Part shown: piece after piece, positions 12,697-46,400 of the stretch
Layout: each line of letters begins with the position of its first letter
Position numbering within the stretch: position 1 is the stretch's first letter
NCBI GenBank assembly: GCA_036567785.1
Contig: DATCTV010000027.1
Span: 97,384-161,383 of the forward strand
Length of the DNA: 64,000 bases
Direction of reading: 5' to 3'
Source: Desulfomonilia bacterium
GTDB taxonomy: Bacteria; Desulfobacterota; Desulfomonilia; UBA1062
Translations under genes and position numbers: made by a program
Notes under the pieces: generated by a model
The model's input: only the letters and a program-made list of their open reading frames with translations
The model's database searches: none
Told to the model about the DNA's origin: nothing

Positions 12697-13962
12697 ATGA
12701 GCACACCTGAAGAGATCAAGCAGCAGGCCTTAAAGGATTTTGCCGAATTCATCAACCCCATGAAGGTCAGGACAATGAAAAGCGCCGGCATAGACATCAT
12801 CGAAGAAAAGCGCAGCGGCGCATGTTCGTGGGACATTACCGGAAAGCGCTACATCGACTGCCAGACGGGCTCGGGCATTATGAATGTCGGCCGGGGCAAT
12901 CAGGAAATCGCTGCGGCCCTTAAAAAAGCGCTCGATACATACGACATCGGCGTCTTTCTTTTATGCTCAAAGCAGAAGGCTGACCTGGCGAAAAGACTTG
13001 CCGAGATAACGCCTGGCGACCTGAGCTGCACCATATTCGGTGCAGGCGGCGGCGAGGCTGTCGATGCTGCCATCAAGATTGCCAGGGGTTTCACGATGAA
13101 GCCCGGCATCATCTACACGGACAAGGCCTATCACGGTCATACGGGTTTTGCACTGTCTGCAATAGGGCGGGATGCCTATAAGGAATCATTTGAACCTCTC
13201 ATGCCGGGATTCACAAAAGTCCCGTTCGGCGATGCCGATGCGATAAGAAAAGCGGTGAACAAGGAAACAGCAGCCGTCATTCTTGAAACCATCCAGGGAG
13301 AAGGCGGAATTAATATCCCGCCTGAAGGCTATCTGGCCGAGGTCAGGAAGATATGCGACGAGAATGAAGTGCTGCTTATTCTTGACGAGATACAGACCGG
13401 CTTCGGCCGTACGGGAAAAATGTTTGCATGCGAACACTGGGGTGTCGTGCCTGACTTGATGACAGTTGCAAAATCGCTTGGCGGTGGCATCTATCCCATA
13501 TCGGCAACAATCTTCAAGGAGGAGATCAACGACTTTTTCATCCCGCATCCGTTCGTCCATCTGTCCACGTTCGGCGGTTCCGATCTGGGCTGCATAGTGG
13601 GTATGGCAGCAATCGATTACATAATAAAGAACGACCTGCCGGGTAATGCGGAAAGAATGGGGCAGCGTTTCAAAGCCGGGTTCGACAGGCTCCTGAAAGA
13701 ATATCCCGACCTGCTGCTCGAGGTCAGGCAGAAAGGGCTCATGATGGGCCTGCAATATACGAATGAATCAATCGGGCCACGCATGACGAAGAAACTTTCG
13801 GACAGGGGGGTGCTTGCGATTTATACGGGAAACGATCCGAGCATATGCAGATTCATGCCGCCCCTTGTGATTACACCTGAAGAAGTTGACGAGGTGTTGA
13901 ACGCCCTTGAAGATTCCATGAAGGAACTCTCTGGTGAGAAGGGAATAGGCAAGAACGATTAG
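12697..13962 (+). CDS. Class-III PLP-dependent aminotransferase (ArgD/GabT/putrescine-AT-like)
   Basis: [21 protein letters not shown] and TFGGSDLGC blocks. A GGAGGTGG ribosome-binding site lies 7 nt upstream of the ATG at 12697. The listed ORF start at 12655 is probably an N-terminal extension. Confidence 0.85.
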
Positions 13963-16023: not shown

Positions 16024-16072
16024 CTCCCTATAAATTCCGATAGTTTGTTTTGGCTGCTAAATTCATAGGGAG
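16024..16072 (+). promoter_or_regulatory. 8-bp perfect inverted repeat (CTCCCTAT ... ATAGGGAG) whose right arm carries the Shine-Dalgarno sequence of the histidine kinase gene; potential ribosome-binding-site-sequestering leader hairpin
   Basis: 16024-16031 is the reverse complement of 16065-16072. GGGAG lies within the right arm, 5 nt before the ATG at 16077. Confidence 0.4.
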
Positions 16073-16076
16073 AAGT

Positions 16077-27918: not shown

Positions 27919-29322
27919 TTGGTTATGTCCAAGGCAAAAATGAGTACCCGTGATCTGATTACACTTATAATGCTGTTTGCAATGACAACGATTCTTTATG
28001 CAGACCAGAGCATCATGTCAGCAATACTTCCCGAACTTTCAAAGACCTTTAATGTTGATGAAAGCACGCTGGGTTACATTAATTTCGCTTTTGTGGTTGT
28101 CGGGGCTATCATGAGCCTGACTTTCGGTTATCTGGCGGACAAGCAATCTCGCAAAATGCTTTTCGTAACTGCAGTTCTGATTGGTGAAATTCCTTGCATC
28201 CTGACTGGAGTGGAATTTGTTACACCGGATATTTATTGGTTTGCCGGTTTGAGAATCCTTTCCGGAATCGGACTGGGGGCATTGTTCCCGATTACACATT
28301 CAGTCCTGGCTGATTATTTCACCGAAGAACACAGGGCATTTGCCGCTGCCTGGATGGGAGCCGCTTGGGGTATTGGAAGTGCCCTTGGAGTAATGGTTGC
28401 CGGTTATCTGACAAATGTGAATCTGTTCGGTCTGGGTTGGCGAATTGCATTTATTATAATCGGTGTTCCCAATATACCTATTGTTCTTGCTTTCTGGGCG
28501 TATGCGAAGGAACCTGAACGGGGAAGATCAGAGGAAGCCCTGGAAGAACTCATTCAAGAAGGTGTGGTATATAAACAAACCATTAATATGCAGGACTTTA
28601 AGGTCATTGCCGCAAACAAGACAAATCTATATACCATGATACAGGGAATCCCCGGATCTTTGCCATGGGGTGTTTTCGGATTTTTTCTTATCACATACCT
28701 GAGAACCGTCAGGGGAGTTTCACTGGAAATGGCTACAACCATCTTTTTCATTCTTGGACTAGGGTCCACAATAGGAGGAGTATTCTGGGCCTATATCGGA
28801 GACAGATTATATAAGAAAGACCCGAGGTATATGCCTATGCTTTGTGGTGTGGTAGTGCTTATCGGAATAATTCCAACGGCTTTGATATTGAATATAACGA
28901 TGAACAACACCATTTACATGGTTTTCGGATTCATAACAGGATTTATAGTATCAGTGGCTGCTGCAAACTATAAAGCCATTCTTATGAATGTAAACAAACC
29001 GGAGAACAGGGGAAGCGTTTTTGCAGTTTCGAACATTGTTGCAGACAATATAGGAGCTGGCGTCGGAACACTGGTTGGATCACTGCTGATTTCCAAAGGT
29101 TTTGAGTCAATGATGAATTCAGCTACATTACGCATAAATGATATTCTGAATATTCAACTGGTCTATAACGCTAAACAGTTCATGATGAATTTTGCAATTG
29201 CATGGTGGATTCCCTGCGGAATACTTTTCCTTATGGCCGCAAAATATATAACCAAGGACAGGGACGCGCTTCAGTCATATCTTGCGGAACAGGCAAAGAT
29301 AATGGAAAAGGAAACGGCCTGA
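27919..29322 (+). CDS. MFS transporter (Spinster-like), paralog 1
   Basis: 12-TM MFS. GYLADKQSRKMLF motif. 60-70% identical to the next gene across most of its length. Confidence 0.8.
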   Translation: MVMSKAKMSTRDLITLIMLFAMTTILYADQSIMSAILPELSKTFNVDESTLGYINFAFVVVGAIMSLTFGYLADKQSRKMLFVTAVLIGEIPCILTGVEFVTPDIYWFAGLRILSGIGLGALFPITHSVLADYFTEEHRAFAAAWMGAAWGIGSALGVMVAGYLTNVNLFGLGWRIAFIIIGVPNIPIVLAFWAYAKEPERGRSEEALEELIQEGVVYKQTINMQDFKVIAANKTNLYTMIQGIPGSLPWGVFGFFLITYLRTVRGVSLEMATTIFFILGLGSTIGGVFWAYIGDRLYKKDPRYMPMLCGVVVLIGIIPTALILNITMNNTIYMVFGFITGFIVSVAAANYKAILMNVNKPENRGSVFAVSNIVADNIGAGVGTLVGSLLISKGFESMMNSATLRINDILNIQLVYNAKQFMMNFAIAWWIPCGILFLMAAKYITKDRDALQSYLAEQAKIMEKETA

Positions 29323-29387
29323 GAAGTATGGCAGACACTGAATAATGAATTATATTATTTCTTGATGAGAAATAAGAGGAGATTGCG

Positions 29388-30713
29388 ATGGCAAGGATTA
29401 AAATGAGCAGGCAGGACAAGTTCACGCTGGTCATGCTTTTCTTCATGACTACTATACTCTACGCCGATCAGCTTATCATCAACGCTATAATCCCTCAGCT
29501 TTCGGCTGAATACCACGTGAATGAAAGCAAGGTCGGAATGGTCGGCTCCGCATTCATCATTGTGGGAGTCATCATGAGCCTGACCTTCGGATACTTTGCC
29601 GACAAGGCTTCCAGAAAAGCGCTTTTCATCATCGCAATCCTAGTGGGAGAAGTCCCATGCGTCCTGACAGGAATAAAATATTTCACCCCGGACTTCACGA
29701 GCTTCGTAGCAATGAGGATATTATCCGGAATAGGCCTGGGAGCGATTTACCCGCTTTCCCATTCGATACTCTCCGATTACTTCAAGGAAGACCATCGAGC
29801 GGCTGCATCGGCCTGGATGGGGACGGCCTGGTCGGTCGGAGGGCTTCTCGGGGTAAATATTGCAGGATTTTTTACAAATGCGGAATGGAACACCCTGGGG
29901 TGGAGATTGTCGTTCATCATTATTGGTGTGCCGAATATACCGGTTGCACTTTTGTTCTGGGCCTTTGCCAGGGAGCCGGAACGCGGGAGGACGGAAGACG
30001 CCCTGGAAGAACTTATCCGTGATGGTAAGGTTTACAAACAGACCATAGGGTTGAAGGATTTCAAGACCATTTTCACGAATAAGACCAATATATTCACTTT
30101 GATCCAGGGCATTCCAGGCACTATCCCATGGGGCGTGCTCACTTTCTGGTTCATTGCATATTTCGAGGCATACCGGAAACTTTCCAAGGAATCGGCAACT
30201 CTTATGTTCGATGTTCTGGGAGGTGGGACGCTTGTCGGAACAATCGTATTTGCATATATAGGGGAGCGTCTTTACAGAAAGGATCCGAAATATATGCCTA
30301 TATTGTGTGGAACGGGGATCATCTTCGGGATAATACCATCGGCAATCCTGATCAATATGCCGAACTCCAACATGACCCTTTATATGATCCTTGGGTTTCT
30401 GACCGGATTTTTCGTATCTGTGGCAGGGGCCAACTATAAAGCGATCCTCATGAATGTCAACAAACCTGAGAACAGGGGCAGCGTGTTTGCGGTGTCAAAC
30501 CTTACGGATAACATCGGCATGGGTCTTGGACCTCTGGTGGGAGCTCTGCTTCTGCCTTATGGCTATCAGCTGATGGTCAATTTTGCGATCGTATGGTGGT
30601 TGCCATGCGGACTCCTTTTCCTGCTCGTATCGAAGTTCATCGATAAAGACAGGCTTGCCTTAAGGGCTTATCTTGATGAAAAAGCAAGGGCACTTCAAGA
30701 AGGAAAAGAATAG
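29388..30713 (+). CDS. MFS transporter (Spinster-like), paralog 2
   Basis: Tandem paralog of 27919..29322. The same blocks are retained (TTILYADQ, GAIMSLTFGY, ILSGIGLGA, MNVNKPENRGSVFAVSN). Confidence 0.8.
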   Translation: MARIKMSRQDKFTLVMLFFMTTILYADQLIINAIIPQLSAEYHVNESKVGMVGSAFIIVGVIMSLTFGYFADKASRKALFIIAILVGEVPCVLTGIKYFTPDFTSFVAMRILSGIGLGAIYPLSHSILSDYFKEDHRAAASAWMGTAWSVGGLLGVNIAGFFTNAEWNTLGWRLSFIIIGVPNIPVALLFWAFAREPERGRTEDALEELIRDGKVYKQTIGLKDFKTIFTNKTNIFTLIQGIPGTIPWGVLTFWFIAYFEAYRKLSKESATLMFDVLGGGTLVGTIVFAYIGERLYRKDPKYMPILCGTGIIFGIIPSAILINMPNSNMTLYMILGFLTGFFVSVAGANYKAILMNVNKPENRGSVFAVSNLTDNIGMGLGPLVGALLLPYGYQLMVNFAIVWWLPCGLLFLLVSKFIDKDRLALRAYLDEKARALQEGKE

Positions 30714-31566: not shown

Positions 31567-31660
31567 ATTTTAATATTGATTATAGGCATAGTTCGTGCAA
31601 ATAAATATTGTTGATGTTATACAATATTTTAAATACTGGGATTCACGGGGGACACGATTG

Positions 31661-33400
31661 ATGGAATACATACATTCAAGAGATTCAATAAGTAGAGGAC
31701 CGGAACTCAATATCCTTCCTTATTTTGCCAGGACGCTGCCCGAGCTTCTAAGAAATTCCATAGTCGTAGGTCCGGACAGGGGTGTGATCTTTGTTGATGC
31801 AGATGGAACTGAAACAAAGCTATCATATAAAAATCTGCTCGAAGACGCATCAAAGGTTTTAACCGGTCTTAGATTGAACGGTTTAGAGCCCGAAGACAAG
31901 GTTGTTTTACAGATTGAAAATGACAGGCTCTTCCTGACAGTTTTCTGGGGAGTTGTTCTGGGAGGCGGCATCCCGGTGCCTCTTGCTCTCCCGAACAGTT
32001 TTCCAATAAGCGAAGGCTCGGAAAAAGTTGCAAATGTATGTGCTCTTATCGGGGATCCCTTTATTGTAACGGACAAAGCTCCTTCAGAATATAAAGATAT
32101 TGTTTCAAGGTCCGTATTGCTGGCAGATGAGTTGACGGTAAACATTCCCGCACAGGATTATCATAATCCGGACCCTGATGATATTGCTTATATACAGTTC
32201 TCTTCGGGATCAACAGGCGATGCCAAAGGTGTAACCCTTACACACAGGAACATACTTACCAACATATATGCGATACTCGAGGCCTCTACCAACCAGGAGC
32301 AGCTCGCTTTACGAGACGAACTCTTAAGCCATCCTTTAAAAGAATATAACATCCCATACAGTGTGTGCAGCTGGTTGCCATATTCGCACGATATGGGGTT
32401 GATCGGATTCCATCTTACACCTATGGCAGGAAGCATGCTTCAGATAAAAATGTCGACCACGACCTTTGTAATCAATCCGACATTAAATCTTATCCTGATA
32501 GATAAGTACAGAGTAACGCAGATACCGAGCCCTAATTTCGGTCTTCTCTGGATGCTTTACATGATTAAGGACGAAAGCATAAAGGGAATTGACCTGTCGT
32601 GTATCGAGGTCCTTTTTAACGGGGCAGAGCCGATATCGCCTCTTGCCGTAAGACTGTTTATCGACCGATTCAGACAATATGGTTTTAATCCGAAAGCCAT
32701 GTTTCCTGTATACGGTATGGCAGAAGCAGCACTTATGGTTACCGCGCCACCTATGGGCACGGATATTCTGTATCATATGCTGGACAGGGAATCATTTACA
32801 AAAGAACATGTTGCGATTGAGGCAAAAGCGGATCTTCCTGTTATTGAATTTGTTGATGAAGGTTATCCTGCTATGGGAATGGAGCTGAGAATTGTCGATA
32901 ATGAAGATAATGTGGTCAAGGAGGGGACTGTCGGCCATATACAGATCAAGGGGCCGAATGTAACGAGCGGTTATTATAAAAAAGAAGAATTGAATTCGGA
33001 GCTCTTCTGCGACGGGTGGCTGAGGACAGGCGATCTCGGTTTTCTGCTTAACGGAAGACTGACTGTTACAGGACGACATAAGGATGTCATATTTGTGAAT
33101 GGTCAGAATTATTATTCGCATGACATTGAAGAAGAGCTTCAGCAGCTGCCTTTTGTCGGCTTTAAAAACATGGTGGTCTGTGGTGTGACCGATCATTCCA
33201 GAGGCACCGAGAGCATTGTGCTTTTCATCAAGACTAAAAAATCCAAAGAAAGCCTTATCGAATTGCTTGGAAAAATTAACAAACATCTTGCGAACAAGAT
33301 AAGGGTTGGCATTGAATCCATTGTCCCGATGCATGATATACCAAGAACCACAAGCGGCAAGGCCCAGAGATTTATACTCAGGGAGAGATATGAAGCCGGT
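31661..33400 (+). other. FAAL domain 1 (approximate bounds), not followed by a carrier domain
   Basis: The adenylate-forming motifs are intact, including the A10 Lys. A linker of about 60 aa with no GxDS(L/I) carrier motif follows before FAAL domain 2. Confidence 0.7.
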
Positions 33401-36400
33401 GACTTCAGGGACAGAGAGGCAAAAAGGCTTGAACCGAACATTTACAATGAAAATGTCCCCAAGGTTGTGCAACCGCCATTAAAAAGAGAAGGGGTATCAG
33501 CCAGAAAGAAGGATTTAAACCTAAACGGTTTGATAAATGACCTTCCTTTTGCAATAGCTGAATCAAAAGTCCACCAGTTTCTTCCCCAGGTCGTAAAGAA
33601 TCTGCCACAGGTATTGAGGATCGCATGCACTATAGCACCGGATTCAGGTATCCTGCATGTCGATGAAAATGGTAATGAGCACCTTCAGACATATGCAAGC
33701 CTTATGAACTCGGCCGAGAAAGTTCTACGGGGATTAAGGGCCCATGGATATAAACCTGGAGATCAGGCCATCCTGCAAATCGAGAATTCCGACGAATTTC
33801 TTGTAGCCTTCTGGGGAATAATCCTTGCAGGAGTAATACCGGTTCCTTTACCTATCCCTGGGACATTCCCCATCAGTGAGGGTATGGAGAGGATAACAAA
33901 AGTTTGCGGCGTACTGGATAAGTTCTGTATAATTTCGGACCAGCCTGAAAGGTCTTACCGCTCTCTTGGAAAAGTCGATTTTCTGAGTATCGAAGAACTG
34001 CTTACATATGAACCTGACAAGAATCACCACAATCCGGATACTGACGATGTCGCATATCTCCAGTTCTCTTCAGGCTCTACAGGCGATCCGAAGGGCGTAA
34101 TGCTGACACATTACAATCTTATATATACTATAGATGCCTCGGCGAAATGCATGTTTGATGTCAGAGGAAACGATATAAGGCCGACTCTCGGATATGGTAT
34201 CCACATATTGAAGCATAAATTTGGCAGAAACAAAGGTGTCGGCGGTTTTGCAAAACTTCTGAATAAGATATCCATGAGCGGTCTGGGTGAAAAAATAAGC
34301 TCATCAAAATATGGCAAATATATTCTTGATACGGCGCTCATATTCAGCGGCATCAAGGTTTCCGCATATACGGATATGCGGATAGATGAGATAAAGATCG
34401 TAAACTGGATGCCTTATTCCCATGACATGGGGCTTATCGGCTTCCACCTTGCCCCTACCATGGGAGGAATGGACCAGATTAAGCTTGAACCGAAGACTTT
34501 TATTCAGAAACCCGCACTTTTCTTGAAACTGATTGACAAATACAGGGGAACACACGTTCCGTGCCCTAATTTTGCTGCTCAGTGGCTGACAACGCAGGTG
34601 GATGACGATGACATAAAGGGTATAGACCTTTCATGCATAAAGTCTCTAACGAATGGTTCCGAACCGATTTCACCGCTGGTTTCAAGGGATTTTATAAAAA
34701 AATACGAAAAATTCGGACTGGATTCCAGGTCGATGTTCATGTGCTATGGCATGGCTGAGGCATCACTTCAGGTAACTGCCCCGCCGGTATTTACTGAACC
34801 TGTTTTCCATAAAGCGGATAAGGATGTCTTTTTAAAGGATCAGATAATACTTCCAACAGTTTCTGATGAAGACAGTATTGAACTTACAGATGTAGGTGGA
34901 CCTGTTGCGGGTATGAAAATAAGGATTGTCGATGACAACGATAATCTTGTCCATGAATTCACGATTGGACATATCCAGATTCAGGGCCCGAATGTTGTCA
35001 AGGGCTATTACAACAATGAAGCGGCCAATAAGGACCTGTTCTGCGGAGAGTGGCTCCGTACAGGCGACATGGGTTTTATGAAAAACGGCCGGATAACAAT
35101 AACAGGAAGACGCAAGGATATAATTTTCGTCAACGGTCAGAACCTGTATGCCCATGATATCGAGGAACAGATTAGACGTGTTCCGGGTATGGCATTCCGT
35201 GAATTTGCGATTGCAGGCCTCAGAGATCTGGACAGTGACAGCGAAAAGATCATTTTTTTCATCAATACAGCAGAGTCAATAACATCCCTTTCATCTCTTC
35301 TCTCCAGAATAAACGAAAATCTTGTATCAACGATCGGTATCAAACTTGATTTCATAGTGCCTGTTCCAGAAATACCCAGGACGCCAAGTGCGAAGGTCAA
35401 ACGCTACAGTCTCAGGGAACAGTTCGAAAAGGGCATGTATGAAACCGTTGTATCGGTAAATGATATCGGCGAAGTACTCGCTGCTTCAAGAGACGAAAAG
35501 GGATTTGAACTTACAGCGGTTGAGCAGCGTATTATCGAGATATGGAGGGATGTCCTTGGTATAGATGCAATATCAAAATTCGATAACTTTTTCGATCTCG
35601 GAGGCAATTCCCTTCGTGCTACGAAAGTCACTTCGAGACTTAGAGAGGAATTCAGTATTGAACTCGGATTAAAGGTCATCTTCGAACATCAGACGGTTGA
35701 AACGCTTGCAGAAGCAGTTGAATCTTTGACTCGGACGGAGAGGGAGAAGTTTCCCGAGATCAAACGCCTGGAAAAGGCAGAATATTACGAACTGTCTCAT
35801 GCCCAGAAAAGGCTTTGGCTGCTTGATAAAGTTGTTCCAGACAGCCCCTTCTACAACATTCCCGGAGCGGTCCTGATTGACGGTGTTGAACTTGATTTTG
35901 CTGTACTTAGGGATTCGCTTCAGGCCGTCGCTGACCGGCATGAAACGCTGAGAACGGTTTTCGTGACCGTTAATGACGAGCCGGTACAGGTTGTAAATGA
36001 TTCATTCAAAGTTGAAATGCCGGTGTACGACCTGAGACATGAAGAGGGTAAGGAAGAAAGGCTTCAGGCAATAATATCTGAAGAAAAAGTAAGGCCTTTT
36101 GATCTGGAAAAAGGCCCGCTGTTCAGGGTTATGATTATAAGGCTTTCAGAAACGAAGAATGTGTTCATGATAGTAATGAACCATATCATCTCGGACGGAT
36201 GGTCCATGTCGATACTTGTCCAGGAGGTTATCGGAAATTATCTGGCGCTGAATTCAAAGTCACCGTCACCCTATTCCGAATTGCCCGTACAATACAGGGA
36301 CTTTGCCTTCTGGCAGAACAGACTGCTGGAGGGTGAGGGCATAAAAGTACAGGAAAAATACTGGCTTGAAAATCTGTCCGGAAAGCTGCCCTTGCTTAAT

Positions 36401-39400
36401 CTGCCCACAGACAGGCCCAGACCCGCCATCCAGACTCAGAATGCGGGTACGGCAAGAATAAAGATTGATCAGAAGACTTTAAACGGCATCAAGGAGCTTG
36501 CAAGAAAAGAAGACGTGACAATGTTCATGCTTACCCTGGCCCTTTTCGATGTAATGCTTTCAAAACTTTCAGGCCAGGAGGATATTATAATTGGTGCACC
36601 TATTGCCGGCCGCAACAATTCCCAGATCGAACCTCTGATAGGATTCTTTGTGAATGTTCTGCCCATGAGGATTGACCTTTCCGGGAACCCTGATCTTTCA
36701 GAGCTTCTGAAACGCGTTAAGAAAACAGCAATTGGCGCCTATGCAAACCAGGAGTACCCGTTTGACAGGCTCGTTGAAGTTCTTAACCCGGTGAGGGATC
36801 TCAGCAGGACTCCAATCTTCGATATCACGTTCGAATTCCGCGAGGCATCGGCAAATCCGTTTGCCGGTTCCGGGATATCGGGAATAACAATAAAGGATGT
36901 TACGGGAGACGATCCGAATTCGAGGTTCGACATGAGCGTCACCGGTTATGAGGAGCCTGACGGAATAACGATGCGCTTCGAATATAATGCCGATCTGTTC
37001 AAAAGAGAGACCATCGAACGCTTCATGGAATACTATAAGCATATAATTGAAGATGTGCTTATGAATCCTGAGAAGCGCATTGCTGACATAGAAATGCTCT
37101 CCTCTTCCGAGAAAACACGGATTCTAAAGGAATTCAACGAATCCGCATTTCCCGTACCAGAGGGTGAGACAATGCCTTCGATCATCTCTGCGAAGGTAAG
37201 GGAATTCTCTGATCGTCCTGCAATTATTTTTAAAGATGAGGAAATAACATATGCCGGCGTTGATATTTTATCAAACAGGGTTGCGACATTTCTTATAAGC
37301 AAAGGTGTTGCACCAGGTGACATGGTGGCCATACTTTCAAACAGATGTCCCGAAATGATCATAGCGTGTCTGGGTATCTGGAAAGCAGGTGCGGCCTATG
37401 TGCCCATTGACCCTGATTATCCTTCTGAAAGAATCCGGCTGATGATTGAAGATTCAGGTGCAAAGGTATTGTTCCTGCAGAGAGATCTTTTAAACATGAT
37501 ACCTGAATGCGGTATCGTAACAGCAGCTCTGGACAAGGGATCAGAAGTCTGGCAGTCATCAGGCAACGCCCCCGATATTCATATCAAGCCTGATATGCTT
37601 GCTTATATAATCTATACTTCCGGTTCTACGGGCAGACCTAAAGGAACCATGATACCGCATAAGAATGTAATCAATTTTGCATTGTGGTACAGCCGGTTTT
37701 TCAATTTCACTGAACATGACAGAGGCACCAATCTTTCCGGTGTTGCATTTGATGCAACCGTTCTTGAAATATGGCCTTGTCTTGCATCCGGTGCCTGTAT
37801 TGTATCACTGGACCGCCGTCTCGGAGAAATGATGCCGGAAGAGCTTGCACAATGGATGATAGACAAGAAAGTCACCAAGACTTTCATCCCGACAAAGCTT
37901 GCAGAAATATTTGTGGGTATGGATTTTGAAGGGCTTTCACTGAATCTTATGACTACCGGCGGAGACAGATTGAGCTTTGTGCCGAGACATCCTTCATATG
38001 CCTTATTCAATGTGTATGGTCCGACCGAAACAACGGTTCTGTCGACCTATATGGATATCAGCAGATGGAACAATGAGGACGGCAATCCGCCTATCGGCCG
38101 TCCGACAGGCAATACACTGATATACATTCTGGACAAATACCTTAAACCGGTTCCGGTTGGTGTAGTCGGACAGATATACATCGGCGGAGCAGGCGTGGGC
38201 AGAGGGTATTTTAACGATCCCGAAAAGACAGCAAAGTCTTTCATCCCTGACCCGTTCAAAGGGGGGGAAGCCAGGATGTATGCATCAGGCGACCTCGGCA
38301 GATGGCTGCCGGATGGTAATATAGATTTCATAGGACGTTCTGATTTCCAGATCGAGATAAGGGGCTACAGGGTTGAGATGGGAGAGATAGAAGCGGTCCT
38401 GTCATCACATGAGCAAATCAGGGAATGTGTTGTCATCGACAAGAAGGATTCGGAGGACCAGATAAGGCTTGCTGCCTTCTATCTGGCCGAATCTCCTTTG
38501 TCCAATGAGGAGTTACATTCATATCTGAAGATTTACCTGCCTCATTATATGATACCTTCTCAGTTCATATACCTGGAAAGCCTCCCGATGACGCCGAACG
38601 GAAAACTGGACCGTGAAGCCCTTATCAGAATGGTCACACTTGAAGCAAGCCAGACTGAATATATTGAACCTCGTACAGAGACCGAGCGCCTTCTCGTTGA
38701 TATCTGGAAGGACATACTGAATGTCGAGCGCATAGGGGTCATGGATAATTTCTTTGACCTAGGCGGCCATTCGTTGAAAGCCACTCGTGTAATGTCGCGC
38801 ATAAAAAGTTCACTTAATGTCGATGTACCTTTGAGGGTTATGTTTGAACAGCCGACAATCAGAGATCTGGCTCTGGCAATTCAAGGAATGAAATCGGGAG
38901 AATCAGTTTCATCGGATATCCCGGTACTTGAAAAAAGGGATTATTACGAGATATCAAATGCACAGAAGCGGTTATGGTTCCTCGACAAACTTATACTTGA
39001 TCCTTCCTCATACAATGTACATGCGGATGTACTCCTGGAAGGAAAACTTGATACCGATGTCTTAAGAAAAGCTTTTCAGGCGGTTGTTGATCGTCAGGAA
39101 GGACTCAGGACTACATTCTCAACGGTTAACGGAAGACCTGTCCAGGTAATAACAGACAGGCTTGAAGTCGAGATGCCCGTTGTTGATATGACAGGTAAAA
39201 GCGAGGATGGGCCCGAGGTTAAACTCGTTATTGATCTGGAAGGCGCCTATCATTTCAATCTCGAAAAGGGCCCGCTTTTCAGGATCAAGATGCTGAAGCT
39301 GGGTGATGACAAACATATTCTCATGCTCACAATGCACCATATAATTTCTGACGGATGGTCGCTCGGCATACTCCTAAGGGAGGTTGCTGCGGAATATGCG

Positions 39401-42400
39401 GCTTTCATCAATAATGCCGAATCGGTGCTCCCGCCTCTCAAGATACAGTATCGCGATTTTTCCGCATGGCAGAAAAGCCTGCTGGAAAACGGCTTATTAA
39501 AAGACCAGGAAGATTACTGGGTGAAAAAACTGGGAGGGCCGCTGCCTTTCCTTGACCTTCCTGTTGACCGCCCGAGGCCTCCTATACAGACAAACAACGG
39601 TGCCGTTCATACGATAAAGCTTGATGAGACACTTACTCAAAATCTCAGAAATTGTGCAAAAACTCAGGATATAACTCTGTTCATGCTTCTTCTTTCATCT
39701 TTCGGGGTATTGCTGAGCAAATTGAGTCAGCAGCAGGATATAATAGTCGGTTCGCCGATAGCCGGACGGAATCATCACGATCTGGAAGAGCTTATCGGAT
39801 TTTTCATCAATACACTGGCGCTTCGCATGGATATGTCCGGCGATCCGGAATTTAACAAACTGCTTGCCCAGGTGAAACAGACCTGCCTTGATGCCTATGC
39901 AAACCAGGACTATCCGTTCGACCGTCTTATAGACATCCTTAATCCTACTCGTGATACCAGCGCCACGCCTGTTTTCAACGTCATGTTTGTCCTTGAGAAT
40001 GCAACTGATGACCTGAGCGAGGCAAGACTGGGAGATCTGAGGTTTAAGAACATTACACATGATCGTGGCGTAGCAAAATTCGATATAACCCTGATTGCTT
40101 CAGAAGAAGCAGGTCTGATAAAGATGCAGTTCGAGTACAACACTGACCTGTTCAATAAGGAAACTATCGAGAGATTCGGCAATTTCTATGTCAAACTGCT
40201 CAATGAGATATCGGCTGATCCAACAAAGAAACTGAGCGCCCTGGACATTCTTGACGGTGCCGAGCTCAATAAAATCCTTGTGGAATTCAATGCTACTGAT
40301 TCATTTTATCCGAAAGACAAATGTCCATATGACCTCTTCGAAGAACAGGTAAACAAGACTCCCGATAAGACGGCCGTTGTATTCGAAGGCAAGGAGCTTA
40401 CCTACCGCGAGCTCAATGAGAAATCAAACATGCTTGCGCGGTATCTGCGTGCCAGGGGTGTGGAGAAAGAAGTAAAGGTGGGTCTTCTTGTCGAACGTTC
40501 AGATGACATAATCACGAGCGTTCTTGCCGTTCACAAGGCGGGTGGTGCCTATGTGCCGATGGATCCTGCATATCCTAAGGCCAGACTCGAATATATGCTG
40601 GAGGATTCAAAGAGCCCTGTTCTGATTACTCAGAGCCATCTGCTGGAAAGGATTGCCAACTGTCCGGCAACCGCCGTATGCCTTGATACTGACTGGCCGG
40701 AAATTTCAACAGAGAGCGGAGATAATCTGGAGCCTGTCGCAGGTCCGGAAAATATTTCGCATCTAATATACACATCCGGTTCAACCGGACTTCCTAAAGG
40801 TGTCATGATTGAACACCGCAATGTAACCGCCTTTTTATACTGGTGCCTTGAGGAATTCAGCTTCGATGAATATGAGGAGATGATATTCTCAACCTCGATG
40901 TGTTTCGATCTATCTGTCTTTGAAATGCTTCTGCCTTTGATAACAGGGGCAAAGGTCATTGTGCTCAGAAGTTCGCTTGACCTTGATGATTATTTCAGTT
41001 CAGGCAATACCGCCACTATGGTTAATACCGTTCCTTCCGCCCTTAAACACCTCTTGAACATAGCAGGAAGAAAGCACAGGATAAAGGCTGTAAATCTTGC
41101 AGGAGAGCCTCTCAAGCTTGATCTGGTCAAAGAGGCATATTCCAAACTTGACGTTGATATGGTTCGAAATCTTTACGGACCGACTGAGGACACCACATAT
41201 TCGACAAATTTCCGTGTTAACAGGAATTTCAACAGGCAGCCGCTCATAGGAAGGCCCATTTCAAACACGAAGGCATATATACTCGATAAGCATATGAAGC
41301 CGGTACCCATTGGCGTCAAAGGAGAAATATATCTCTCCGGCCACGACCTTGCCAGGGGGTACTGGAATGCCCCGGAAAAAACCGCGCAACGCTTTATCCC
41401 CAATCCATTCAGCAGCGAGTTCTGTCCTTATATCTACAAGACTGGAGACCTGGGAAGCTGGCTGCCTGACGGCAATATTGAATTTCACGGACGTGTAGAT
41501 TACCAGGTGAAAATCAGAGGCAACCGCATCGAAATGGGTGAGATCGAAACGCGGCTTTCAGAACACCCTTCGATAACCGATGCTGTGGTTATTGACAAGG
41601 ACGATGCGGAAGGGAACAAGTACCTGGCAGCCTATTATGTGGCTGACGAAGATATATCGGTCACTGATCTGCGCGCCTATCTGAAAGAATCGCTTCCCGA
41701 CTATATGATTCCTTCACGTTTTATCTTCATGGAGAGTCTGCCGTTGACTCCGAACGGAAAAGTCGACCGTAATGCATTGCCTGAGCCCGAAGGCCTCCGG
41801 CCATCGGTCGAATCAGAATATGTTGCGCCAAGGGATGAGATTGAAAAGATACTGGCTGAAATATGGCAGGAGATCCTGGGAATCGAGAAGGTCGGAATCT
41901 TTGATAATTTCTTCGAACTCGGCGGCGATTCCATAATAAGCCTCCAGGTGGTCAACCGTCTGAATCAACACGGTTACAGGCTGCATCCGAAGGATATACT
42001 TCAAAGACAGACAATAGCTGAACTTTCGAGTGCTGTGGTCGCCATCGAAACCGCTTCTGCCGAGCAAGCGCCAGTAAGCGGTGTTTCACCTCTCACACCT
42101 ATCCAGCACTGGTTCTTCAATCAGAATCCTGAAAATGAAAACCATTACAATCAGGCCCTGCTATTTGTGTCGAAGGACCGCCTTAACGGGGGCGACATAC
42201 TCCATAAGGCCCTGCAGGGAATATTGGATCACCATGATGTTCTGCGTTCCCGTTTTATTGATGGTGAACAGAGAATAGAGGGCCTTGGTGAAAAAGTGAA
42301 CTTTATTACAAAAAAGATTGATTCCGAAGACGTTCTGGATGAAGAGATCGATAAAGTTCAATCTTCACTGAACATCAAAGAGGGCCCTGTATTCCGTGCG

Positions 42401-43426
42401 GCTCTGTTCCAGGCTCCTGAGAACGATTATCTGCTGCTTGTTGCCCACCATCTTGTTGTAGACGGGGTATCCTGGAGAATATTGCTTGAAGACCTGCTTG
42501 ACGGTTCGGCAAAGGCCGCTACAGGTCAGGAGATCGTGCTGCCGCCGAAGACCACTTCATTTATGGAATGGGCCAGCCGCCAGTCAAAATATGCCGGTGA
42601 GGAAAGGGTCCAGAACGAGCTTGAATTCTGGAATAATGAAATCAGTAAAATAAATCCTGATATTCCGCTTGACCATGACAGTGGTGTAAATAATGTCGAA
42701 TCCTCCGATTTCGTCCGTTTCGACCTCACGCATGAAGAAACGGATAACCTTTTGAAGCATGCACATCATGCATACAATACCGATGTGAATGATTTGCTTA
42801 TTACTGCTTTGATGAGGGTAGTGCTGTCATGGACGGGAAAAACGGATATGGCCTTTGATCTGGAAGGTCATGGAAGGGAAGATGTAATATCAGGTGTCGA
42901 TATTACGAGAACCGTCGGATGGTTCACCACTCTGTTTCCTGTAGTACTGAAGACTCCGGGAAACGAGCTTTCATCTCAGATTAAATATGTCAAAGAGAAG
43001 CTCCATACGATTCCTTTCAAGGGTTTCAATTATGGAGTGCTTAAACATCTTTGCGGTAAGGATCTCAATTCCGGCTCGCTTATCAGTTTCAATTATCTCG
43101 GACAGATAATTGCGGGAAGCGCAGACGGATCGTTCAAGCTGGCGAGGACAAATGTACCGCATGTGATAGCGGGCAGGAACAAAAGGGCTTTCCTCATCGA
43201 TATCATTGCGATGGTTATGGACGGAAAATTGAGAATAGACTGGATTTTCAGCAGAAACAAACACCGCCGGGAAACGATTGAAGGGCTTACCCGGATGTTC
43301 AGAAATGAAATTGTAAAGGTGGTTGAACACTGCATGAATCCGGACAGTTTTGATATCACACCTTCGGATTTCGGTCTTGCAGGTCTGAATCAGGATGAAT
43401 TAAACAGACTGTCCGATTTTGAATGA
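31661..43426 (+). CDS. NRPS 1: FAAL-FAAL-ACP-C-A-T-C-A-T-E (lipoinitiation plus modules 1-2)
   Basis: Two complete fatty acyl-AMP ligase domains: SSGSTGDAKG...YGMAEA...WLRTGDLG...GRHKDVIFVNGQNYY...TSGKAQR, and SSGSTGDPKG...YGMAEA...WLRTGDMG...GRRKDIIFVNGQNLY...PSAKVKR. Carrier GGNSL. C domains MNHIISDGWS and HHIISDGWS. A cores YTSGSTGRPKG and YTSGSTGLPKG. T domains GGHSL and GGDSI. E domain HHLVVDGVSW. Acidic COM-like C-terminus ...PSDFGLAGLNQDELNRLSDFE. The start is either ATG 31661 (GGGGGA ribosome-binding site) or GTG 31595. Confidence 0.9.
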   Translation: MEYIHSRDSISRGPELNILPYFARTLPELLRNSIVVGPDRGVIFVDADGTETKLSYKNLLEDASKVLTGLRLNGLEPEDKVVLQIENDRLFLTVFWGVVLGGGIPVPLALPNSFPISEGSEKVANVCALIGDPFIVTDKAPSEYKDIVSRSVLLADELTVNIPAQDYHNPDPDDIAYIQFSSGSTGDAKGVTLTHRNILTNIYAILEASTNQEQLALRDELLSHPLKEYNIPYSVCSWLPYSHDMGLIGFHLTPMAGSMLQIKMSTTTFVINPTLNLILIDKYRVTQIPSPNFGLLWMLYMIKDESIKGIDLSCIEVLFNGAEPISPLAVRLFIDRFRQYGFNPKAMFPVYGMAEAALMVTAPPMGTDILYHMLDRESFTKEHVAIEAKADLPVIEFVDEGYPAMGMELRIVDNEDNVVKEGTVGHIQIKGPNVTSGYYKKEELNSELFCDGWLRTGDLGFLLNGRLTVTGRHKDVIFVNGQNYYSHDIEEELQQLPFVGFKNMVVCGVTDHSRGTESIVLFIKTKKSKESLIELLGKINKHLANKIRVGIESIVPMHDIPRTTSGKAQRFILRERYEAGDFRDREAKRLEPNIYNENVPKVVQPPLKREGVSARKKDLNLNGLINDLPFAIAESKVHQFLPQVVKNLPQVLRIACTIAPDSGILHVDENGNEHLQTYASLMNSAEKVLRGLRAHGYKPGDQAILQIENSDEFLVAFWGIILAGVIPVPLPIPGTFPISEGMERITKVCGVLDKFCIISDQPERSYRSLGKVDFLSIEELLTYEPDKNHHNPDTDDVAYLQFSSGSTGDPKGVMLTHYNLIYTIDASAKCMFDVRGNDIRPTLGYGIHILKHKFGRNKGVGGFAKLLNKISMSGLGEKISSSKYGKYILDTALIFSGIKVSAYTDMRIDEIKIVNWMPYSHDMGLIGFHLAPTMGGMDQIKLEPKTFIQKPALFLKLIDKYRGTHVPCPNFAAQWLTTQVDDDDIKGIDLSCIKSLTNGSEPISPLVSRDFIKKYEKFGLDSRSMFMCYGMAEASLQVTAPPVFTEPVFHKADKDVFLKDQIILPTVSDEDSIELTDVGGPVAGMKIRIVDDNDNLVHEFTIGHIQIQGPNVVKGYYNNEAANKDLFCGEWLRTGDMGFMKNGRITITGRRKDIIFVNGQNLYAHDIEEQIRRVPGMAFREFAIAGLRDLDSDSEKIIFFINTAESITSLSSLLSRINENLVSTIGIKLDFIVPVPEIPRTPSAKVKRYSLREQFEKGMYETVVSVNDIGEVLAASRDEKGFELTAVEQRIIEIWRDVLGIDAISKFDNFFDLGGNSLRATKVTSRLREEFSIELGLKVIFEHQTVETLAEAVESLTRTEREKFPEIKRLEKAEYYELSHAQKRLWLLDKVVPDSPFYNIPGAVLIDGVELDFAVLRDSLQAVADRHETLRTVFVTVNDEPVQVVNDSFKVEMPVYDLRHEEGKEERLQAIISEEKVRPFDLEKGPLFRVMIIRLSETKNVFMIVMNHIISDGWSMSILVQEVIGNYLALNSKSPSPYSELPVQYRDFAFWQNRLLEGEGIKVQEKYWLENLSGKLPLLNLPTDRPRPAIQTQNAGTARIKIDQKTLNGIKELARKEDVTMFMLTLALFDVMLSKLSGQEDIIIGAPIAGRNNSQIEPLIGFFVNVLPMRIDLSGNPDLSELLKRVKKTAIGAYANQEYPFDRLVEVLNPVRDLSRTPIFDITFEFREASANPFAGSGISGITIKDVTGDDPNSRFDMSVTGYEEPDGITMRFEYNADLFKRETIERFMEYYKHIIEDVLMNPEKRIADIEMLSSSEKTRILKEFNESAFPVPEGETMPSIISAKVREFSDRPAIIFKDEEITYAGVDILSNRVATFLISKGVAPGDMVAILSNRCPEMIIACLGIWKAGAAYVPIDPDYPSERIRLMIEDSGAKVLFLQRDLLNMIPECGIVTAALDKGSEVWQSSGNAPDIHIKPDMLAYIIYTSGSTGRPKGTMIPHKNVINFALWYSRFFNFTEHDRGTNLSGVAFDATVLEIWPCLASGACIVSLDRRLGEMMPEELAQWMIDKKVTKTFIPTKLAEIFVGMDFEGLSLNLMTTGGDRLSFVPRHPSYALFNVYGPTETTVLSTYMDISRWNNEDGNPPIGRPTGNTLIYILDKYLKPVPVGVVGQIYIGGAGVGRGYFNDPEKTAKSFIPDPFKGGEARMYASGDLGRWLPDGNIDFIGRSDFQIEIRGYRVEMGEIEAVLSSHEQIRECVVIDKKDSEDQIRLAAFYLAESPLSNEELHSYLKIYLPHYMIPSQFIYLESLPMTPNGKLDREALIRMVTLEASQTEYIEPRTETERLLVDIWKDILNVERIGVMDNFFDLGGHSLKATRVMSRIKSSLNVDVPLRVMFEQPTIRDLALAIQGMKSGESVSSDIPVLEKRDYYEISNAQKRLWFLDKLILDPSSYNVHADVLLEGKLDTDVLRKAFQAVVDRQEGLRTTFSTVNGRPVQVITDRLEVEMPVVDMTGKSEDGPEVKLVIDLEGAYHFNLEKGPLFRIKMLKLGDDKHILMLTMHHIISDGWSLGILLREVAAEYAAFINNAESVLPPLKIQYRDFSAWQKSLLENGLLKDQEDYWVKKLGGPLPFLDLPVDRPRPPIQTNNGAVHTIKLDETLTQNLRNCAKTQDITLFMLLLSSFGVLLSKLSQQQDIIVGSPIAGRNHHDLEELIGFFINTLALRMDMSGDPEFNKLLAQVKQTCLDAYANQDYPFDRLIDILNPTRDTSATPVFNVMFVLENATDDLSEARLGDLRFKNITHDRGVAKFDITLIASEEAGLIKMQFEYNTDLFNKETIERFGNFYVKLLNEISADPTKKLSALDILDGAELNKILVEFNATDSFYPKDKCPYDLFEEQVNKTPDKTAVVFEGKELTYRELNEKSNMLARYLRARGVEKEVKVGLLVERSDDIITSVLAVHKAGGAYVPMDPAYPKARLEYMLEDSKSPVLITQSHLLERIANCPATAVCLDTDWPEISTESGDNLEPVAGPENISHLIYTSGSTGLPKGVMIEHRNVTAFLYWCLEEFSFDEYEEMIFSTSMCFDLSVFEMLLPLITGAKVIVLRSSLDLDDYFSSGNTATMVNTVPSALKHLLNIAGRKHRIKAVNLAGEPLKLDLVKEAYSKLDVDMVRNLYGPTEDTTYSTNFRVNRNFNRQPLIGRPISNTKAYILDKHMKPVPIGVKGEIYLSGHDLARGYWNAPEKTAQRFIPNPFSSEFCPYIYKTGDLGSWLPDGNIEFHGRVDYQVKIRGNRIEMGEIETRLSEHPSITDAVVIDKDDAEGNKYLAAYYVADEDISVTDLRAYLKESLPDYMIPSRFIFMESLPLTPNGKVDRNALPEPEGLRPSVESEYVAPRDEIEKILAEIWQEILGIEKVGIFDNFFELGGDSIISLQVVNRLNQHGYRLHPKDILQRQTIAELSSAVVAIETASAEQAPVSGVSPLTPIQHWFFNQNPENENHYNQALLFVSKDRLNGGDILHKALQGILDHHDVLRSRFIDGEQRIEGLGEKVNFITKKIDSEDVLDEEIDKVQSSLNIKEGPVFRAALFQAPENDYLLLVAHHLVVDGVSWRILLEDLLDGSAKAATGQEIVLPPKTTSFMEWASRQSKYAGEERVQNELEFWNNEISKINPDIPLDHDSGVNNVESSDFVRFDLTHEETDNLLKHAHHAYNTDVNDLLITALMRVVLSWTGKTDMAFDLEGHGREDVISGVDITRTVGWFTTLFPVVLKTPGNELSSQIKYVKEKLHTIPFKGFNYGVLKHLCGKDLNSGSLISFNYLGQIIAGSADGSFKLARTNVPHVIAGRNKRAFLIDIIAMVMDGKLRIDWIFSRNKHRRETIEGLTRMFRNEIVKVVEHCMNPDSFDITPSDFGLAGLNQDELNRLSDFE
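33600..35435 (+). other. FAAL domain 2 (approximate bounds) with a roughly 70-aa insertion between the A3 and A4 cores (about 34130-34400), followed by an ACP (about 35500-35730)
   Basis: THYNLIYTIDASAKCMFDVRGNDIRPTLGYGIHILKHKFGRNKGVGGFAKLLNKISMSGLGEKISSSKYGKYILDTALIFSGIKVSAYTDMRIDEIKIVNWMPYSHDMG. The equivalent segment in FAAL1 is THRNILTNIYAILEASTNQEQLALRDELLSHPLKEYNIPYSVCSWLPYSHDMG. Confidence 0.65.
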
Positions 43427-43436
43427 GGAGATTGTA

Positions 43437-46400
43437 ATGTCATATCTGACGAAGCAGAACATAGCAGATATATATCCCTTATCGCCCATGCAGCAGGGCA
43501 TGCTCTTCCACACGCTGTATGATTCGGAGACTTCCGCTTATTTCGAACAGTTCAGCTGCAGGATTGAAGGGCCTCTGGATCTGCCATGCCTTGAGAAGGC
43601 ATGGAACCACCTCATCGATGCATATCCGGTTTTCAGGACCGTCTTCAACTGGAAGGACACCTCAAAACCTGTTCAGATCGTTTTGAAGAAGTATCCCATT
43701 GTCCTTGGCGTCCACGATATTAAAGACCTTGATGAAAGTTCCCAGAAAGAATGGATCAGGGATTTTCTTGCAAAGGACAAGGCCTCCTCATTCGATCTTG
43801 GCAAAGGGCCTCTTATGAGGCTGAATGTAATTGAACTGGGGCATAATGTTTACTATTTTCTCTGGAGTTATCACCATATACTTCTTGACGGCTGGTGTCT
43901 TTCTCTTATCATGAGCGATTTTTTCAGCTCTTATACCACTTTGAAATCAGGTCAGCCTTTGTCCCGCATAACACGTCCTCCTTATAAGGAGTATATAGCC
44001 TGGCTTTCCAGACAGGACAGGAAAAAGGCCGATCAGTTCTGGGGTGAATATCTGAGGGATTTTGATACTCCGACTGCCCTGCCATGCGACAGACCTCATG
44101 AGGGAGGCCTAAACGTAAAAGAAATACAGCTGGAACTCAGTGAAGAGACGACAAACAGGCTTGAGGCATTTGCCAGAGAACAGCGCACAACACTGAGCAC
44201 CGTTATTCAGGGTATCTGGGCAGTGCAACTGAGCCGCTACAGCGGAACCGATGACTGTGTTTTCGGCATAACCGTTTCAGGACGGCCGCCCCAGCTTAAA
44301 GGTTCCGATGCCATGGTCGGCCTGTTCATAAATACCCTTCCGGTAAGGGCCTTGATTGACAGACAGAGCACCTTTTCTTCGTTTCTGAAGAAATTCAAGG
44401 AAAGTTCAACGAGCGTAATGGAATACGAATATTCGTTTCTGCCAGATATACGTGCATGCAGTGCGGTTTCACCCGGCATGAACCTGTTTGACAGCATTAT
44501 AGTCTTCGAAAATTATCCCCTGGACACCTTTGCCGTCGGTTCCGATATGAAGGTATCGGATATCAGCGCTAAAGAGGCGACAAACTATGATATCTGCATT
44601 GTATGCGCACCCGGAAAGAAGCTCGTTCTGAAATACCTCTATAACGAGGAAAAACTGTATCCTGAGAGTATGGAGCGTATCAAAGGCCATACCCTGACGC
44701 TCATCAGTGAGGTGCTGAACAAGCCTGATACACCGCTTTCAGAGCTGGAGATCATGACACCCGAAGAATATGAGCAGGTCGTCACCGGTTTCAACTCTAC
44801 CAGAAGACCATTCCCTGAAGATAGGTGTCCATATCAGCTCTTCGAGGAACAGGTTTTGAAGACACCTGATAATATTGCAGTGAGCTTTGAGGGCGACTCC
44901 ATTAATTATAAAGGGCTCAATGAACGTGCCAACAGACTGGCGCACTATCTAAGGTCGAAAGGTGTCGGGCCGGAATCCAAGGTTGGTCTCATGGTAAGCC
45001 GCTCAATCGATATGCTCGTGGCAATCCTCGGGATACATAAGGCAGGCGGGGGTTATGTCCCCATGGATCCCGAATATCCCGGAGCAAGACTTGAGTACAT
45101 GCTGGAAGATTCCGAGAGTCCCGTGCTTGTCACGCAGAGCTTCCTTCTTGACAGGATAACGAACCGGCCGGGCAACATAGTGCTGCTTGACAATGATTGG
45201 GCTGAAATCGAAAAGGAAAGCCCGGACAATCCGGAACCGGTTGCCGGGCCGAAAAACCTGTCCCATCTGATATATACTTCCGGTTCGACCGGTGTCCCGA
45301 AAGGTGTCATGATCGAACACCGCAATGTAACGGCATTTCTTTACTGGTGTCTGGACGAGTTCACCTTCGATGAGTATGAAGAAATGATATACTCGACATC
45401 TATGTGTTTCGATTTGTCAATATTTGAGATGCTGCTTCCTCTGACAACGGGAGCCAGGGTGATCGTACTGAAGAGTTCACTCGATATCGATGATTACCTT
45501 AGCGCCGGAGGAACCGTCACCATGGTCAATACGGTTCCGTCAGCACTGAAGCATCTGGTAAATATTGCCGGGAAAAGGTACAGAATCAAGGCGATATGCC
45601 TTGCAGGTGAGCCACTCAAGCTCGATCTGGTAAAAGACGCCTATGCCAGGCTCGATGTGGATGTAATAAGAAACCTCTACGGCCCGACCGAGGATACCAC
45701 ATATTCCACGGGATTCAGAGTCCCAAAGGATTTTGACCGTCAGCCCCTTATCGGAAAGCCTCTGTCCAACGGCCAGGCTTATATACTGGATAAGAACCTG
45801 AAGCCTGTTCCCATAGGCGTGCTTGGCGAGATATATCTATCAGGCGCCGGGCTTGCGCGTGGGTACTGGAACGCACCCGAAAAAACCGCTCAGCGGTTTC
45901 TTCCGAATCCGTTCAGTACGGGTGAGTATCCTTTTATCTATAAAACCGGAGACCTTGGACGATGGCTTTCAGACGGCAATATAGAGTTTCACGGAAGGGT
46001 TGACTATCAGGTAAAGATACGTGGAAACCGTATCGAGATGGGTGAAATCGAGGCCCGTCTGGCTGAACATGAAAAGATTTCCGATATTGTTGTTATTGAT
46101 AAGGATGACAGGGAAGGGAACAAGTTCCTCGTTGCCTATTATGTAGCCTCAGAAGAGCTGTCAATTTCGGAATTAAGGGCATTTCTCAAAGAAAAACTGC
46201 CCGACTATATGGTGCCGTCACGCATGATAAGACTGGAAAGCCTTCCGCTTACACCAAACGGCAAGGTGGACAGAAAGGCGCTTCCCGAGCCTGAAGGCAT
46301 GCAGCCTCAGGTTGAAACGGAATATGTCGCACCCAGGGACAAGCTTGAACAGCTGATTGCCCAAATCTGGCAGGAGGTCCTTGGTGTTGACCGTATAGGC

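Follow-up and report, generated by a model that had tools for sequence, protein, structure and literature searches.

Loading by a fatty acyl-AMP ligase (FAAL) decides the lipid tail of a lipopeptide, and the tail largely sets the membrane activity of the product. In a 2021 survey bacterial FAALs were described as stand-alone proteins, as fusions with an acyl carrier protein (ACP) or as fusions to a polyketide synthase (PKS) or a non-ribosomal peptide synthetase (NRPS) (PMC8460268). These three classes recur in a review of 2025 and in a survey that covered 15,226 FAALs in 2026, neither of which speaks of FAALs in tandem. In canonical lipoinitiation, by a FAAL-ACP pair or by a FAAL that forms part of a megasynthase (among them HapA and olefin synthase; PMC11837247, PMC8460268), a fatty acid is converted to acyl-AMP and passed to a holo-ACP, and there is one FAAL per carrier. 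Two FAAL-type domains placed head to tail, both long retained, are known from eukaryotic DIP2/CPS1 (PMC9342972, PMC8460268). The three-domain layout of DIP2, a DMAP1-binding domain with two tandem FAAL-like domains, was reported not to be seen in prokaryotes (PMC8460268), and the tandem didomain was termed a novel organisation in 2022 (PMC9342972). The FAAL reviews and surveys consulted here, up to 2026, hold to one FAAL per carrier, with tandem FAAL-like domains regarded as a DIP2 innovation of the opisthokonts. The present study concerns a 64-kb stretch of contig DATCTV010000027.1 from a Desulfomonilia bacterium (the window), in which the first gene of an NRPS cluster (31661-43426; the features of the cluster and the two MFS transporters given here lie on the plus strand) encodes two FAALs in series ahead of a single ACP. 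A literature phrase search for tandem or double FAAL domains returned only papers on DIP2. A multi-FAAL lipoinitiation array was not found described for bacteria in the searchable literature; it is not a new enzyme class.

The open reading frame of NRPS gene 1 (31595-43426) opens with a GTG at 31595, but the ATG at 31661 is the likely start because the N-terminus of the homologues, MEYIHS, matches there (in P0001 and P0121 also), and residue numbers are counted from this ATG. Pfam places three Condensation, five AMP-binding and three PP-binding stretches on the 3921-aa protein, giving the order FAAL1-linker-FAAL2-ACP-C-A-T-C-A-T-E (C, condensation; A, adenylation; T, thiolation; E, epimerization). 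FAAL1, of the F1 type, occupies residues 1-585 (31661-33415) and FAAL2, of the F2(ins) type, residues 626-1263 (33536-35449). The core motifs A3, A5, A7, A8 and A10 of the ANL superfamily were found in both, the P-loop reading SSGSTGD(A/P)KG and A8 reading GR(H/R)KD. In FAAL1 these are SSGSTG at residue 181 (P-loop 32201-32230), YGMAEA at 351 (32711-32728), RTGD at 455 (33023-33034), GRHKD at 471 (33071-33085) and the A10 lysine, Lys567 (33359-33361). In FAAL2 they are SSGSTG at 803 (P-loop 34067-34096), YGMAEA at 1029 (34745-34762), RTGD at 1133 (35057-35068), GRRKD at 1149 (35105-35119) and Lys1245 (35393-35395). The original prediction, which was made from the sequence alone, had claimed two apparently intact FAALs in series and had listed these motifs; the motif scan bears out the list and its positions, and the refuting case named there, a FAAL1 that lacks essential catalytic residues, does not apply, every core motif being kept.

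Both domains also carry the segment between A5 and A6 that sets FAALs apart. Residues 314-446 of FAAL1 align to FadD32 with gaps of at most 1 aa, and spans of this region match EcFAAL and FadD28 also, whereas the fatty acyl-CoA ligases 1ult and 3g7s align with FAAL1 only after the FAAL-specific insertion. The corresponding segment of FAAL2 is equal in length to that of FAAL1 and its model displays the strand-helix-strand pattern. AlphaFold (AF2) models built on small alignments gave complete FAAL folds for both (pLDDT 85.1 and pTM 0.82 for FAAL1; pLDDT 85.0 and pTM 0.83 for FAAL2), a structure prediction of both having been advised at the outset. A Foldseek search with the FAAL2 model retrieved the solved FAALs 3kxw, 3pbk, 7r7e, FadD23 and FadD32 as well as the FAAL-like starter A domains 6ulx and McyG. 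In its ANL fold, its FAAL-specific insertion and its order of ACP followed by C, the loading module resembles canonical FAAL-ACP and megasynthase-fused systems; it differs from them in having two FAALs, and in relatives three, in series before a single ACP.

It was important to establish whether each FAAL has a carrier of its own. No PP-binding match lies between the two FAALs in the Pfam scan of the 3921-aa protein, and residues 561-700 gave zero matches even at a permissive limit of E<=10, which rules out a hidden carrier in the linker. The original prediction had described a linker of about 60 aa without a carrier motif. The absence of a carrier holds, but the truly variable part is only about 40 aa long (residues 586-625; 33416-33535; charged, weakly conserved, dN 0.13-0.24), and the remainder belongs to an N-terminal extension that is conserved in FAAL2-type domains. 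A sole carrier precedes the first C domain, the ACP at residues 1289-1353 (35525-35719; motif GGNS, Ser1317 at 35609-35611), as had been anticipated. A six-frame motif scan of the 64 kb revealed exactly seven carrier serine motifs, all within the four NRPS genes, so that one carrier is available to both FAALs in this cluster; the idea of a FAAL supplied in trans finds no support in this distribution. The ACP is followed by the presumed lipoinitiation C domain (35786-37126). Thus the first NRPS begins with the order that marks a lipoinitiation module, namely an acyl-activating domain, a carrier and a C domain, here with the activating domain doubled. As a separate observation, the motif of this C domain is NHIISDG (36179-36199) rather than HHxxxDG, the second (catalytic) histidine being retained; P0001 has HHIISDG.

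The two domains are old paralogues. Pairwise alignment gave 46-51% identity between FAAL1 and FAAL2, with both intact and with the insertion in FAAL2 confirmed. In a neighbour-joining (NJ) tree the F1-type and F2-type clades each have 100% bootstrap support and, among FAALs at large, group as sisters (100%). The ratio of non-synonymous to synonymous substitution rates (dN/dS) was computed against two orthologous loci, L001 and L007, and was 0.048/0.047 for FAAL1 and 0.056/0.056 for FAAL2, as compared to 0.04-0.05 for the ACP and 0.05-0.06 for the first C domain. The C-terminal subdomains of the FAALs are their most conserved parts (dN/dS 0.02-0.04). The original prediction had also suggested a recent duplication in which one copy decays; for the window this is refuted by the divergence, by the sister clades and by the nearly equal dN/dS of about 0.05 in both copies. 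Decay was seen in a related lineage (L006/L092, discussed below), and the dead copy there is FAAL2, not FAAL1.

The most likely arrangement in the window is a loading array of two FAALs, both catalytically competent as predicted from their motifs and models, that would share one ACP. Loading of this ACP by both domains, and a difference in substrate between them, are inferred, and fatty acids are the likely substrate class of both. In the explanation that we favour, with modest confidence, the two FAALs work in parallel, either of them able to load the one ACP, probably each with a different fatty acid. Each FAAL would adenylate a free fatty acid and pass the acyl group to the phosphopantetheine arm of the same ACP, and the first C domain would then condense this acyl group onto the first amino acid. 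FAAL1 and FAAL2 would most likely serve as alternative entry points with differing fatty-acid preferences. Among the three readings offered originally (two acyl starters, a FAAL acting in trans, a decaying duplicate) the first is the best, with putative starters, the trans-acting FAAL being unsupported and the decaying duplicate refuted.

The nearest functional parallel is found in the puwainaphycin/minutissamide clusters, which have FAAL starters of C10-C14 for PuwC and of C16-C18 for PuwI (PMC9016887, citing Mares et al. 2019). As in the window, two FAALs feed one assembly line, and the Puw pair broadens the acyl range (PMC9016887). PuwC and PuwI are described there as separate loading modules, whereas the window FAALs are fused in one polypeptide ahead of a shared carrier; the array would be a fused, single-carrier version of the two alternative starter modules of puwainaphycin. 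NocH of nocuolin A (PMC11837247) resembles the proposed model in that one loading carrier receives two different fatty acids, but it does so with one promiscuous FAAL where the window has two FAAL domains.

Further evidence came from relatives of the cluster. All of them are metagenomic, and the census rests on score ranking, so distant tandem FAALs may be missed. A new finding is that these relatives differ in their count of FAALs, which ranges from one to three. A single FAAL, of the F2 type, precedes the ACP in P0003 (L002) and P0004 (L003); two FAALs in the order F1-F2 are present in the window and in at least four other loci, P0001 (L001), P0121, P0122 (Spirochaetae HGW-1, contigs up to 884 kb) and L094; three or more are present in L007, L006, L092, P0002 and probably L091. 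P0002 comes from a Thermodesulfobacteriota metagenome-assembled genome (MAG) on a contig cut at both ends, and L091 is cut after its second F1-type domain. FAAL1-type domains have so far been found only stacked ahead of FAAL2, in one or two copies. On the other hand single F2(ins)-ACP-C-A-T-E NRPSs exist, and hence F2 can be the sole loader. In the two-FAAL relative L094 (1968-13822) the NRPS is split into overlapping ORFs (open reading frames; 1968-6869 and 6866-13822) just 3' of the HHIISDG motif of the first C domain, by a natural split or a frameshift.

The closest relative in a genome scan is L007, a MAG of Bacteriovoracaceae (Bdellovibrionota) with FAAL2 92% identical and the neighbouring genes syntenic. 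Its NRPS ORF of 4541 aa encodes three intact FAALs, F1a-F1b-F2, and then one ACP, and the window corresponds to L007 minus exactly one FAAL unit of 619 aa, the junction lying at residue 568 (33362-33364), just past the A10 lysine. In the NJ tree F1b branches outside the group of the window, P0001 and L007-F1a, while the window and L007 are sisters; the one-unit difference would thus reflect either two losses or one lateral gain. When F1a and F1b of L007 (6257-9886) were compared, the C-terminal subdomains showed an amino-acid identity of 0.88-0.95, against 0.53-0.68 in residues 1-80, 121-160, 201-240 and 361-400. Divergence is therefore concentrated in segments of the N-terminal domain, including the FAAL-specific insertion, with little in the catalytic segments. 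Gene conversion, or else a strong constraint on the end that faces the carrier, is suggested by this pattern, which would accord with diverging specificity more readily than with dosage alone.

A natural knock-out is provided by two strains of a single lineage (dS ~0.1), the Bacteriovoracaceae MAG L006 and L092, a JGI contig of 262 kb. Their FAAL2 is a dead pseudo-domain (L006:~6950-8600; residues 1235-1790 of the L092 ORF) in which the P-loop reads SSGSKRDSRG, YDLAEA replaces YGMAEA, GGHKD leaves A8 without its arginine, and an in-frame deletion of ~88 aa takes out the A10 lysine. The N-terminal body and the helical insertion are retained. Both F1 copies are intact and are followed by a single ACP. 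Thus, in this lineage the F1-type domains must load the ACP across an intervening FAAL body.

A number of observations weigh against parallel loading as proposed for the window. Intact motifs and purifying selection could also be explained if one of the domains served a structural role. The dead FAAL2 of L006/L092 has a dN/dS of 0.205, compared with 0.14-0.21 for the intact F1 domains and 0.13-0.27 for its neighbours, so the FAAL2 body has a role beyond catalysis, being kept under purifying selection there. The top NCBIfam match of each domain is PRK09192 'fatty acyl-AMP ligase', at 337.7 bits for FAAL1 and 294.3 bits for FAAL2, below the curated cut-off of 600; the figure of 624.8 bits belongs to a query spanning both domains together. 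The best solved sequence homologues are a keto-acid-selecting A domain and McyG, so that something other than a plain fatty acid might be the substrate and the substrate class is no more than likely. A comparison of F1 with F2 for acyl-pocket differences gave only six clade-fixed positions, none of them tied to the pocket, and a literature search for residues that set chain length yielded no usable guide. Finally, the ACP is tethered behind FAAL2 and would have to reach back to FAAL1.

A broader explanation, doubtful when taken as a whole, joins several of these threads. Here the array would be an acyl-selection cassette of variable copy number, built up by the addition of FAAL1-type domains to an ancestral loader of the form FAAL2(ins)-ACP, with every domain as a lipid entry point of its own. 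FAAL2 and its helical insertion would act in addition as a scaffold that presents the ACP, and FAAL2 would originally have been specialised for a fatty acid from a cluster-encoded system resembling polyunsaturated fatty acid (PUFA) synthases. Such a history would account for three facts: F2-only loci adjoin PUFA-like synthases, F1 loci do not, and F2 dies yet is never deleted. Both F2-only NRPS loci have such neighbours, with KS-AT-ACP-KR in each; at L002 (1-10008) KS-KS-AT-FabA-FabA is present as well, and at L003 (1-4045 and 5229-5966) the neighbours include an NMO-type (enoyl) reductase and a phosphopantetheinyl transferase (PPTase), found in L003/L004 only. No PUFA-synthase-like genes were found near F1-containing loci at the loci inspected. 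The two F2-only loci suggest, for the FAAL with the insertion, an original substrate supplied by its own cluster, namely a fatty acid produced there. If the whole were true, the cassette would be a bacterial tandem FAAL pair that works as an obligate unit, independent of DIP2.

The retention of a dead FAAL2, insertion included, at a dN/dS that lies within the range of the intact F1 domains beside it also speaks for another alternative, in which one FAAL loads the ACP and the other is a non-catalytic scaffold for dimerisation, for ACP positioning or for membrane or partner docking via the insertion. Related enzymes do have pseudo-subdomains (6ulw, 'pseudo Asub'). This is nevertheless unlikely for the window, where both FAALs keep all catalytic motifs including the P-loop and the A10 lysine. 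A purely structural domain is expected to shed its motifs, as F2 of L006 did, and in the window FAALs it is the C-terminal subdomains that are most conserved. Parallel loading is preferred also over a redundant dosage array, which would consist of FAALs of the same specificity stacked for loading flux, the copy number drifting by unequal recombination. Between close relatives the copy number does shift in whole FAAL units, the junctions falling in the conserved A10 region, and F1a and F1b of L007 are nearly identical in their C-terminal subdomains. However, F1 and F2 are old paralogues that have been kept distinct across several phyla, and F1a and F1b differ mostly where specificity could be diverging, in segments of the N-terminal domain rather than in the catalytic ones; dosage is thus a distinctly poor candidate.

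It is more improbable still that FAAL1 serves another acceptor, either a carrier elsewhere or a nucleophile on the peptide, to add a second lipid chain and yield a diacylated product. About 680 residues separate FAAL1 from the ACP, and the last A domain, whose code we take to be Ser-like, would supply a hydroxyl. Against this, no free-standing carrier, extra C domain or acyltransferase was found in the 64-kb window, and in L006/L092 no adenylating domain other than F1 is alive ahead of the single loading ACP. That the tandem is an artefact, a collapsed or chimeric repeat of the kind that arises easily when repeated domains of metagenomic origin are assembled, is hardly credible, since the order F1-F2 recurs in one uninterrupted frame in independent ENA, JGI, NCBI and Logan assemblies, contigs of 262-884 kb among them, and paralogues of ~50% identity are too divergent to collapse.

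The second distinctive feature is the insertion in FAAL2. It spans residues 827-912 (34139-34396) between A3 and A4, is basic, forms a predicted four-helix subdomain and is conserved across the F2(ins) clade. The site is 86 aa long in FAAL2, 30 aa in FAAL1 and ~12 aa in ordinary FAALs, a net gain for FAAL2 of 56 aa over FAAL1 and of ~73 aa over canonical FAALs. At the same site F1-type domains have a short extra segment (32273-32362), ~18 aa beyond canonical FAALs and predicted as one extra helix, which could be a remnant or a precursor of the FAAL2 insertion. The four helices of the insertion (residues 215-230, 236-247, 249-254 and 258-271 of the AF2 model, pLDDT 68-88) sit after the canonical post-P-loop helix and before the strand that leads into A4. 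No Pfam family matched the 86 aa at E<=0.1; when the limit was relaxed to E<=10 a chance-level match to DUF6624 appeared (E=0.2, 11.5 bits). An interrupted adenylation domain, with an embedded MT, KR or Ox domain, was considered and rejected, as there is no Pfam family and the four predicted helices are short. The dN/dS of the insertion against L001 and L007 is 0.09-0.13.

The original prediction had placed this insertion correctly, between A3 and A4 and absent from FAAL1, but it had regarded it as a peculiarity of the tandem. The same segment, with its conserved positions, occurs in the single-FAAL NRPSs P0003 and P0004 (Spirochaetota MAG), in the free-standing 772-aa FAAL-ACP proteins P0008-P0012 and in P0128, a FAAL-ACP-aminotransferase. 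Because of its presence in single-FAAL NRPSs and in free-standing FAAL-ACP proteins, the insertion is not a tandem feature, and by its distribution in sequence it is the marker of a small FAAL clade. P0128 (L171:10001-13600) joins an insertion-type FAAL and an ACP to a class I/II aminotransferase (alpha-oxoamine-synthase-like) and adjoins genes for a FabA-domain protein, MMPL, UbiA and DAG-kinase, which makes a third context of the FAAL(ins) clade. P0008 (L089:8708-12803), a FAAL(ins)-ACP that stands free, is flanked by genes for an MFS transporter and for a PilZ protein, and it shares its MAG assembly with the three-FAAL NRPS (GCA_964513375.1, contig CAZEMO010000003.1).

The arrangement had been called unusual, and it is indeed rare among the best matches. 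A search of 1.84 billion representative proteins gave, among its best 150 matches, only four clusters of this family above 1000 bits, the next score being 621. A database search for FAAL-FAAL-ACP architectures, which had been advised at the outset, thus yielded relatives with one, two and three FAALs and, in addition, P0217 (MCA1750364.1; 1347 aa; L088:4743-8786), which ranks about 113th among these matches with 408 bits. P0217 comes from Flavobacteriales/Cryomorphaceae MAGs and resembles the window in joining FAAL-FAAL to one PP-binding domain. A3, A7, A8 and A10 were found in both of its domains, and the A5 pattern (YGLAE) was matched in the second only. It differs in lying outside any NRPS, next to a PPTase and an MBOAT acyltransferase. 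Its halves are 47% identical to each other and only ~30% identical to the window FAALs, which indicates an independent duplication; with this unrelated protein the architecture is rare, yet has arisen at least twice.

The likeness to DIP2 extends to the two FAAL-type domains placed head to tail. DIP2 has an N-terminal DMAP1-binding domain, has no carrier or NRPS and acts in diacylglycerol metabolism, whereas the window has an ACP and NRPS modules, and Pfam found no DMAP1-binding match in the protein of NRPS gene 1. Orthology to DIP2 was rejected and the duplication is an independent one, F1 and F2 being each other's nearest relatives among bacterial FAALs in the NJ tree. PF23024 gave a weak match on the C-terminal subdomain of FAAL1, at 30 bits (cut-off 27), with no stretch individually within the E-value limit. 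The series of one, two and three FAALs, together with the lineage in which the ACP-proximal FAAL is dead, provides a comparative system for several adenylating domains serving one carrier in cis. It can inform how acyl-chain diversity is encoded and whether lipid tails can be engineered by putting in or taking out FAAL units. Attention is drawn, moreover, to a lipopeptide family that is uncharacterised, present in predators of the Bdellovibrionota type and in MAGs of Spirochaetota and Thermodesulfobacteriota.

The 31 kb upstream of the cluster carry housekeeping genes, and no PKS, PPTase or carrier gene was found there. Two MFS transporters (27919-30713), syntenic in L001 and L007 and generic by family search, are possibly exporters; a pairing of the LplT/Aas type was considered and dropped because NCBIfam typing was only generic. 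Amid the housekeeping genes lies a hybrid histidine kinase of the 7TMR-DISM type (16050-18989), which has PAS and receiver domains and no evident link to the cluster. Downstream of NRPS gene 1, with overlapping or closely spaced starts, follow NRPS gene 2 (43419-47921; C-A-T-E), gene 3 (47936-52447; C-A-T-E) and gene 4 (52476-60008; C-A-T-C-A-T-R, where R is a terminal NAD-binding thioester reductase). Genes 2 and 3 each have two Condensation-family stretches, one A and one T, the second Condensation stretch being read as E by analogy. A short-chain dehydrogenase (60029-60769) comes next and then a type II thioesterase (60792-61544). With four NRPS genes and a terminal reductase, the cluster is a six-module lipopeptide line with reductive release, and its host is taken to be Bacteriovoracaceae-like, a relative of predatory bacteria. 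Rough Stachelhaus-type codes (37748-58900) cover four of the six A domains. They were read against a GrsA reference, and we tentatively take them to be DALFTGVVLK for A1, DLFN-ALTYK for A2, DLFNCALTYK for A3 and, for A6, DVWHISLIDK, presumably the Ser-like one.

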